1,818 bases of DNA from Escherichia coli (GCF_003334385.1 NZ_QOWN01000108.1), one strand, 5' to 3'; positions 1 through 1,198 are shown, counted from the first letter of the stretch. The notes: generated by a model not told the origin, from the sequence alone. A program made the numbers and translations.

Positions 1-632
1 GCCTGCCGGGGCAGCAGTATGATGAGGAGTCCGGCCTGTATTACAACCGCCACCGCTATTATGACCCGCTGCAGGGGAGGTATATCACTCAGGATCCGAT
101 TGGGCTGAAGGGGGGATGGAATTTTTATCAGTATCCGCTGAATCCGGTTCAGTATATAGATTCAATGGGACTGGCATCAAAATATGGACACTTAAATAAT
201 GGCGGATATGGAGCGAGACCCAACAAACCGCCTACGCCCGATCCAAGTAAATTGCCGGACATAGCGAAACAATTAAGACTGCCATATCCTATTGACCAGG
301 CCAGTAGTGCGCCTAATGTTTTCAAAACATTCTTCAGAGCATTAAGCCCTTACGACTACACACTGTATTGCAGGAAGTGGGTAAAACCAAATCTGACTTG
401 TACGCCACAGGATGATTCCCAGTATCCAGGGATGGATACAAAGACAGCAAGTGATTACCTGCCACAGACAAATTGGCCAACAACTCAATTACCACCAGGA
501 TATACTTGTGCAGAACCCTATTTATTCCCAGACATTAATAAACCCGATGGGCCAGCAACAGCAGGGATAGATGATTTGGGTGAAATTTTAGCTAAGATGA
601 AACAGAGAACATCGAGAGGAATAAGAAAATGA
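1..632 (+). CDS. Rhs-family polymorphic toxin, 3' end (5'-partial; codons in phase from position 3): conserved Rhs core terminus plus variable C-terminal toxin (CT) domain; stop TGA 630-632
   Basis: The frame is open from the window start to 632. Translation begins [57 protein letters not shown], which matches the conserved terminal block of the RHS repeat-associated core domain (E. coli RhsA-type cores end ...[30 protein letters not shown]...NP....DPLGL). The ATG at 165 given by the ORF track is internal (Met inside the demarcation motif), not the true start. Whether this is a full-length rhs or an orphan fragment (possibly ybfO/rhsO of E. coli K-12) cannot be decided from the window. Confidence 0.9.
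54..173 (+). other. Rhs core C-terminal signature block, ending in the core/CT demarcation motif [10 protein letters not shown] (144-173), a variant of the canonical PxxxxDPxGL
   Basis: Direct translation: [40 protein letters not shown]. Established knowledge: in Rhs/YD-repeat toxins the PxxxxDPxGL motif marks the end of the conserved core and the start of the variable toxin domain. Confidence 0.85.
174..629 (+). other. Variable C-terminal toxin (CT) domain of the Rhs protein, about 152 aa, activity unknown
   Basis: Sequence after DSMGL: [42 protein letters not shown]...[22 protein letters not shown]. It is proline-rich, has 3 Cys, and shows no HNH, HxxD, deaminase or other catalytic motif I can recognise by eye. 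Hand-counted GC is about 42% in 241-300, against about 59% in 1-120. Confidence 0.7.
614..619 (+). promoter_or_regulatory. Ribosome-binding site for the immunity gene, located inside the 3' end of the toxin ORF
   Basis: AGAGGA at 614-619, 9 nt before ATG 629. Confidence 0.6.
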
Positions 633-685
633 AAAGAGTTTTGTTCTTTTTGCTGATGATATTTGTTAGTTTTGGTGTTATAGCT
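629..685 (+). other. Predicted Sec signal peptide (19 aa) of the immunity protein; alternatively an uncleaved N-terminal membrane anchor
   Basis: [19 protein letters not shown] followed by DCEIQA. There is no lipobox (no L-x-[GAS]-C; an Asp separates Ala from Cys), so it is not a lipoprotein signal. Confidence 0.55.
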
Positions 686-1198
686 GATTGCGAAATACAA
701 GCTAAAGATCATGATTGTTTTACTATTTTCGCTAAGGGTACTATTTTTTCCGCGTTTCCTGTCTTAAATAATAAAGCCATGTGGAGATGGTATCAGAATG
801 AGGACATCGGTGAGTATTATTGGCAAACAGAACTGGGTACATGTAAAAATAATAAATTCACACCAAGCGGGGCGAGACTCTTAATTCGCGTCGGGTCACT
901 ACGCCTTAATGAAAATCATGCCATCAAAGGAACGTTGCAGGAGTTGATAAATACAGCAGAAAAAACGGCGTTTCTCGGCGATCGGTTTAGAAGTTATATA
1001 AGAGCGGGTATCTATCAAAAAAAGAGCAGTGATCCAGTTCAGTTGTTGGCAGTCCTTGATAATTCAATCATGGTAAAATATTTTAAAGATGAGAAACCAA
1101 CTTATGCTCGAATGACAGCACATCTCCCGAACAAAAATGAGTCTTACGAATGTTTAATAAAGATACAGCATGAACTAATTCGTAGTGAAGAGAAATAA
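629..1198 (+). CDS. ybfC: Putative Rhs immunity protein (RhsI-like), 189 aa, with N-terminal signal-peptide-like segment; uncharacterised
   Basis: ATG at 629 overlaps the toxin stop (ATGA, 629-632). A Shine-Dalgarno-like AGAGGA lies at 614-619, 9 nt upstream of the ATG. The N-terminus [22 protein letters not shown] has a basic n-region, hydrophobic core and V-x-A before the predicted cleavage site. Position immediately 3' of an Rhs CT domain is the canonical immunity-gene location. Hand-counted GC is about 30% in 631-720. The symbol ybfC is a tentative recollection of the E. coli K-12 189-aa YbfC downstream of ybfO and needs BLAST confirmation. Confidence 0.85.

Follow-up and report, generated by a model that had tools for sequence, protein, structure and literature searches.

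Layout of the locus

The DNA analysed here, which we call the window, is a stretch of 1,818 nucleotides from Escherichia coli. Genome comparison shows that it is 100% identical to chromosomes of the K-12 lineage, where it belongs to the RhsC element. In an annotated K-12 record the genes are ordered kdpFAB, ybfA, rhsC, ybfB, ybfO (an RHS core fragment that is truncated at its N-terminus), ybfC and ybfQ; 3′ of ybfQ lie two more ISAs1/H-rpt pseudogenes and then ybgA. The window corresponds to the locus described by Hill and co-workers in the 1990s (rhsC-ybfB-ybfO-ybfC-ybfQ-ybfL-ybfD) and has the same structure throughout, with a GC-rich core, an AT-rich core extension, a small downstream ORF and H-rpt. 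To that description we add two observations: the GC change point is located ~58 nt inside the core, and the tip of ybfO is, elsewhere, the attached tip of a full-length rhs gene. The features of the window are as follows.

1-173, + strand: 3′ end of ybfO, an orphan (dissociated) Rhs core fragment, in the frame that starts at base 3, identified by RHS_core and TIGR03696
116-173, + strand: last 58 nt of the conserved core, AT-richer, beginning at the GC change point after base 115
159-173, + strand: DSMGL, a variant of the core-ending DPxGL motif, from the translation and an alignment of K-12 paralogs
174-632, + strand: variable C-terminal tip of 152 aa, presumed toxin domain, with the stop codon TGA at 630-632
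about 211-270, + strand: proline-rich, GC-richer linker within the tip
629-1198, + strand: ybfC, 189 aa, presumed cognate immunity protein, from the ORF list and the RefSeq name "protein YbfC"
629-691, + strand: coding sequence of the hydrophobic N-terminus of YbfC (GC 0.30 and AT skew -0.43 at 631-690)
1281-1660, + strand: truncated first H-rpt (ISAs1/ISEc1-family) copy, which carries ybfQ, from the direct repeat and transpos_ISAs1
1424-1678, + strand: ybfQ ORF, which continues into the next H-rpt copy
1661-1818, + strand: left end of a second H-rpt copy, incomplete because the window stops here

Bases 3-632 hold the final part of the orphan rhs ORF. The orphan core fragment of K-12 is 1062 nt long and not a full core, the window carries only its last 57 residues, and RefSeq describes the ybfO stretch as an RHS core fragment without an N-terminus. 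The residues encoded by 3-173 match positions 1205-1261 of the 1261 positions in the NCBIfam model RHS_core (NF041261, E 7.7e-32), and TIGR03696 is matched with E 2.5e-20 (72.7 bits, against a cut-off of 32.5). Both matches end at residue 57, i.e. at base 173 of the window.

The 3′ part of the window is made up of insertion-sequence remnants. Two H-rpt copies stand in tandem, the first just 380 nt long, and their left ends are recognisable from a direct repeat of 158 nt (1281-1438 and 1661-1818) with 95% identity. The ybfQ product matches the NCBIfam family transpos_ISAs1 with E 5.7e-18, and is described in RefSeq as an ISAs1-family transposase that lacks its C-terminus. H-rpt elements, which belong to the ISAs1 family, are common but not universal downstream of Rhs elements. 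As a source of the AT-rich region discussed below H-rpt can be ruled out, as it begins only at 1281. A 16-nt inverted repeat with 88% complementarity was also observed here, between 1265-1280 and both 1421-1436 and 1801-1816. One arm abuts the left end of H-rpt and the other spans the start codon of the transposase; this repeat is probably due to chance. A search of the window against Rfam gave no match, and promoter-like and terminator-like sites were no more frequent than expected from shuffled sequences.

Position of the GC step in the Rhs core

An original prediction, made from the window alone, described a sharp compositional break at the boundary between the Rhs core and its C-terminal tip, with a drop in GC content that begins near the DSMGL motif, at positions 160-200. 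The hand-counted values on which it was based are exact, at 59.2% for 1-120, 41.7% for 241-300 and 30.0% for 631-720. The drop is also real. Once the upstream context is included, GC content falls from 0.618 to 0.395, a change that none of 500 shuffled sequences reached.

The place of the drop is another matter. A likelihood-ratio test on 1-720 alone puts the best change point after base 115, where GC content goes from 0.60 to 0.407 (permutation p about 0.007). Because the window contains just 173 nt of core, we extended the test to the full orphan core fragment of the K-12 locus, together with its tip and ybfC. The change point again fell at window position 115, with a 2LLR of 103.9 and a support interval (2 lnL units) of 76-123. 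This interval excludes 160-200, a site that is about 45-85 nt too far downstream. A GC profile in 60-nt windows agrees, with 0.583 at 61-120, 0.383 at 121-180 and a return to 0.50-0.55 over 181-270; a step down at 160-200 is not seen, and the change does not coincide with the DSMGL codons (159-173) either. Thus, of a break at the core/tip boundary, the break stands and the location does not, as the change lies ~58 nt before the core ends at 173.

The same test does not bear out a staircase of three levels (59%, 42% and 30%). A second change, at window position 566, is not significant (2LLR 6.8; matched in 96 of 500 shuffles). Two local features explain part of the profile beyond the core. GC content rebounds to 55% at 211-270, which codes for the proline-rich linker, and the 30% stretch at 631-720 is T-rich sequence (AT skew -0.43) coding for the hydrophobic N-terminus of YbfC, while ybfC as a whole has 36.7% GC.

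The contrast between a GC-rich core and an AT-rich tip is confirmed when whole modules are compared. The full rhsC core has 61.3% GC (0.64/0.49/0.72 at the three codon positions) and the orphan core 60.5%, with a third-position GC content (GC3) of 0.73. The corresponding values are 41.3% for the rhsC tip, 31.2% for ybfB, 43.1% for the ybfO tip (GC3 0.34) and 36.7% for ybfC (GC3 0.34). In short, cores are at 60-61% and GC3 0.72-0.73, against 43% and 37% for the tip and ybfC, both with GC3 0.34; across the transition from core to tip GC3 goes from 0.73-0.76 to 0.34-0.40. The H-rpt region has 38.6% GC and the flanking housekeeping genes 50-56%. The core and tip modules are both atypical for E. 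coli, in opposite directions, which agrees with published descriptions of Rhs elements (PMC7259588, PMC2935791).

Sequence homology ends at a different point from the step in composition. The segment 1-173 is 80-97% identical to the eight other core ends of K-12. All nine can be aligned as far as the D(P/S)xGL codons; homology is lost between 146 and 173, and the sequences are unrelated beyond. When the orphan is compared with rhsA, rhsB and rhsC in 50-nt windows, identity from about -850 to +100 is mostly 0.92-1.00 (lowest 0.88), then 0.76-0.96 in 101-150, and it is at the random level (0.16-0.44) past 150. The corresponding genes of E. coli O157:H7 and strain AR_0015 match the orphan at 0.94-1.00 right through the tip.

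The motif at the end of the core is itself variable. The sequence PxxxxDPxGL demarcates the variable C-terminus, and orphan toxin/immunity modules are known (PMC3150448). Here the motif is DSMGL, in which Ser replaces the Pro of DPxGL, and the K-12 paralogs have DPLGL, DPMGL or DPQGL. Homologs of the ybfO tip carry D(S/P/A)xGL, with DS, DP or DA in other genera. This variation among tip homologs indicates that the form of the motif goes along with the tip family instead of the core.

We next consider why the step falls inside the core. The last 60 nt of core (114-173) have 33-47% GC in all eight K-12 copies, and the preceding 113 nt have 56-61%. In these copies GC3 is 0.20-0.50 in the last 20 core codons versus 0.57-0.76 upstream; since third-position GC falls too, the change is not purely one of amino-acid composition. 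We applied the change-point test to eleven Rhs ends, namely eight from K-12, those of O157:H7 and AR_0015, and one from a metagenomic contig of a different genus. In nine of the eleven the break lies 48-58 nt before the last core base, whatever tip comes next. The two exceptions are ylbH, which offers just 100 nt of core for testing, and the metagenomic contig, with its break at -137. The GC step is a constant feature of the core's 3′ end and not a signature of the junction in this window. It lies ~58 nt before the core end because 116-173 (about 19 codons) has a tip-like composition in every copy. Because composition and homology change at different places, a picture in which foreign DNA starts exactly at the junction is too crude. 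The tip-like segment might be ancestral tip sequence that has become "core".

The tip, its partner and their distribution

The presence/absence polymorphism that a displaceable tip implies is found across strains, with the tip present in 3615 of 5426 complete E. coli genomes. The whole window, including the core end and H-rpt, has a median of 8 matching places per genome. The tip and ybfC (174-1198) occur essentially once per genome, and the best match reaches 95% identity or more in 3614 of the 3615 genomes.

The tip occurs in three different settings, which bears out the claim that it is displaceable. In K-12 it is dissociated and follows rhsC-ybfB, so that the rhsC-CT/ybfB pair comes first and the orphan second. 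In O157:H7 strain 86-24 it ends an rhs gene of full-length size (4.2 kb) at the same kdp-ybfA locus, with neither rhsC-CT nor ybfB in between. The copy in AR_0015 is 96% identical and forms the end of an intact full-length rhs gene at the nikR-yhhJ (rhsB) locus. The displacing cassette of the K-12 type, which comprises rhsC-CT, ybfB and their junction with the orphan core, is present in 2537 genomes. As a side observation, the O157:H7 86-24 record used here (L006 3261-8026) is that of a mutant isolate, and in it the tip-bearing rhs gene and ybfC are both annotated as frameshifted. A gene for an NTF2-fold immunity protein and a DUF6258 gene occupy, in this record, the downstream place that ybfQ has in K-12.

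This arrangement is the C-terminal displacement with dissociated tips described by Jackson et al. 2009 (PMC2935791), in which a core fragment and its tip are shunted downstream of an intact rhs gene with a different tip. As in that work, orthologous tips are attached or dissociated depending on the strain, and a GC peak lies on the core fragment; such peaks were used there to delimit dissociated tips, and a circular intermediate was proposed for tip displacement. Set against those data, the RhsC locus of K-12 clearly exemplifies a dissociated tip in clade I.

Relatives are also found outside E. coli. Salmonella, E. albertii, Citrobacter, Kluyvera, Phytobacter and Pseudocitrobacter have homologs of both proteins, with 63-76% identity for the tip and 58-89% for YbfC. 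On a metagenomic contig from another genus the tip and a ybfC homolog lie side by side and close a VgrG-DUF6531-Rhs gene string, with rhs fragments downstream. The core of this contig has 61% GC, the tip 45% and the ybfC homolog 37%, with flanks at 49-56%. The cassette keeps its own composition in different hosts, which fits a shared mobile pool and points to no donor. A "foreign origin" of the tip cassette would fit its composition and patchy distribution. In the metagenomic contigs (L008-L010, about 2400-12500) we also observed several small ORFs after the ybfC homolog, followed by another rhs fragment. The rhs genes there are broken up into numerous ORFs, which may stem from sequencing frameshifts.

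The tip has no homology to the other K-12 tips in alignments, and no family in Pfam, NCBIfam or PADLOC. For YbfC there is no NCBIfam or PADLOC family, and nothing in Pfam better than E 0.43. Neither protein has a relative among PDB sequences in profile searches. When 1.84 billion representative proteins were searched exhaustively with a profile, the tip fell into a family of 27 clusters, in which every complete member inspected is an Rhs C-terminus that comes after a core end with DPxGL. The motifs of this family are SPYDYxxYC, a second Cys, PGxDxK, PxG(Y/F)xCxxPx(Y/L)FP(D/E) and a basic C-terminal end; three Cys are conserved and no His. An AlphaFold2 model of the tip (pLDDT 43.6) is unusable for fold assignment.

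The AlphaFold2 model of YbfC is a beta-sandwich (pLDDT 74), and the protein has an N-terminus that resembles a signal peptide and four invariant Cys. YbfC would be a soluble periplasmic protein or a lipoprotein. We also note that the residues before Cys21 are lipobox-like in several homologs (IAAC, LASC, MASC) and are IADC in E. coli. The ATG of ybfC (629-631) overlaps the TGA stop codon of the tip (630-632) by 4 nt, as ATGA, which suggests translational coupling of the two genes. Furthermore, ybfC lies directly 3′ of the tip both in E. coli and in another genus, and the taxonomic ranges of the two proteins match. From composition, distribution and gene order, a role of YbfC in "immunity" seems plausible. 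We infer that it may be an exported immunity protein for a toxin that acts in the periplasm. That the ybfO tip and YbfC make up an uncharacterised class of Rhs toxin acting in the periplasm, with an exported immunity protein, is a tentative proposal that we would put at somewhat under even chances.

A literature search on ybfO and ybfC found no functional study. An in-silico study of Rhs proteins in EHEC that covered the same tip arrived at no reliable functional assignment (PMC7216683); primer rhsCR of that study maps to 215-234 of the window. The closest parallels are the orphan cdiA-CT/cdiI and rhs-CT/rhsI modules (PMC3150448; PMC3967940), in which, as here, a promoter-distal tip has a short stretch of upstream homology and is followed by a small cognate ORF. 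However, Poole et al. 2011 and Koskiniemi et al. 2014 demonstrated toxin and immunity activities in those modules, whereas for ybfO-CT/YbfC such activities are presumed. The present pair also differs in the signal-peptide-like N-terminus of YbfC and in the DSMGL motif.

Interpretation of the break

The compositional break is very probably the seam between the modules of an Rhs polymorphic-toxin gene, here the RhsC element of E. coli K-12. The upstream module is the conserved, GC-rich rhs core (about 61%, GC3 about 0.73), with 80-100% identity among all rhs paralogs, and the downstream module an AT-rich cassette made up of the variable, presumed toxin tip (43% GC) and a probably translationally coupled ybfC (37% GC). 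Such a cassette would be exchanged among rhs genes and strains through homologous recombination in core sequence, a process termed C-terminal displacement. In K-12 an incoming rhsC-CT and ybfB would have shunted the core fragment, tip and ybfC downstream, where they would persist as a silent orphan. In a full-length Rhs protein, autoproteolysis of the core would free the tip after D(S/P)xGL; the freed tip would be delivered via a VgrG-linked type VI system, and YbfC, as an exported beta-sandwich protein, would neutralise it in the periplasm. We infer these steps of exchange, release, type VI delivery and neutralisation from earlier work (PMC2935791, PMC3150448, PMC8636562).

Could the break be something else? 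A chance fluctuation in a short window is so improbable that we give it next to no weight. It is true that the sampling SD of a 60-nt window is about 6.5 GC points, and that the second step, from tip to ybfC, is within the range of shuffled sequences. Yet the main step was reached in none of the 500 shuffles, has a 2LLR above one hundred (103.9, as given above) and recurs in every Rhs end tested. Amino-acid composition alone, with core and tip of the same origin, is an explanation that we consider very unlikely. The tip is rich in Asn, Tyr, Phe and Lys and the signal peptide of YbfC is hydrophobic; the GC minimum at 631-720 encodes the Phe/Leu/Ile-rich signal peptide, the rebound at 211-270 encodes the proline-rich linker, and GC at codon positions 1 and 2 also drops in the last 20 core codons. 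But third-position GC is roughly halved from core to tip, which already points to a difference in synonymous codon choice. The tip is also non-homologous between paralogs, a third of genomes lack it, and it occurs at more than one rhs locus.

A third alternative concerns where the seam lies. In this account resident DNA gives way to incoming DNA at about 115, the break is the exact recombination point, and the final 58 nt of "core" are always carried along with the tip. The regular spacing of change points in nine of the eleven ends is in its favour, as is the comparison of rhsB with the orphan, where identity is 96-98% in 1-100 and just 76% in 101-150, and the D(S/P/A)xGL variant co-varies with the tip family. 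Against this, the orphan, rhsC, rhsA and yibJ, which carry four unrelated tips, are nearly identical to about 146, so that crossovers must also have occurred downstream of 115. Moreover, the low GC content of 114-173 is common to all copies and to both subfamilies, for which an old, fixed property is a better fit than repeated import. We therefore consider a junction at 115 unlikely, though less so than the two explanations above, and retain a seam between core and tip cassette whose compositional edge lies within the core.

K-12 is not known to have a type VI system. Since the orphan also has no N-terminal delivery region, its tip is probably silent, or at least not deployed, in this strain. 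The ybfC gene of K-12 could at most be a stored immunity gene.

The original prediction read the break as the classic Rhs mosaic, and this interpretation is supported: the end of the core, the loss of homology, the change in composition, a displaceable tip and polymorphism among strains were all found at this locus. That said, the GC break is already known. It has been recognised since the 1990s, at a locus that is fully annotated in K-12, and is a textbook property of Rhs elements; in the part of PMC7259588 that summarises Hill et al. 1994, E. coli Rhs elements are described as having a GC-rich core and an AT-rich core extension. As originally stated the break changes nothing, as it re-describes this known trait of E. 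coli Rhs.

Its practical value is modest. GC plots will misplace the start of the toxin by ~19 codons, since the change point precedes the DPxGL boundary by 48-58 nt. The GC change point is a reliable marker, though one that is offset from that boundary. In addition, the K-12 RhsC locus provides a clean case of tip displacement that is documented at the level of populations. Finally, two thirds of complete E. coli genomes carry ybfO-CT/YbfC, and the apparently exported partner makes the pair a reasonable target for toxin/immunity assays.
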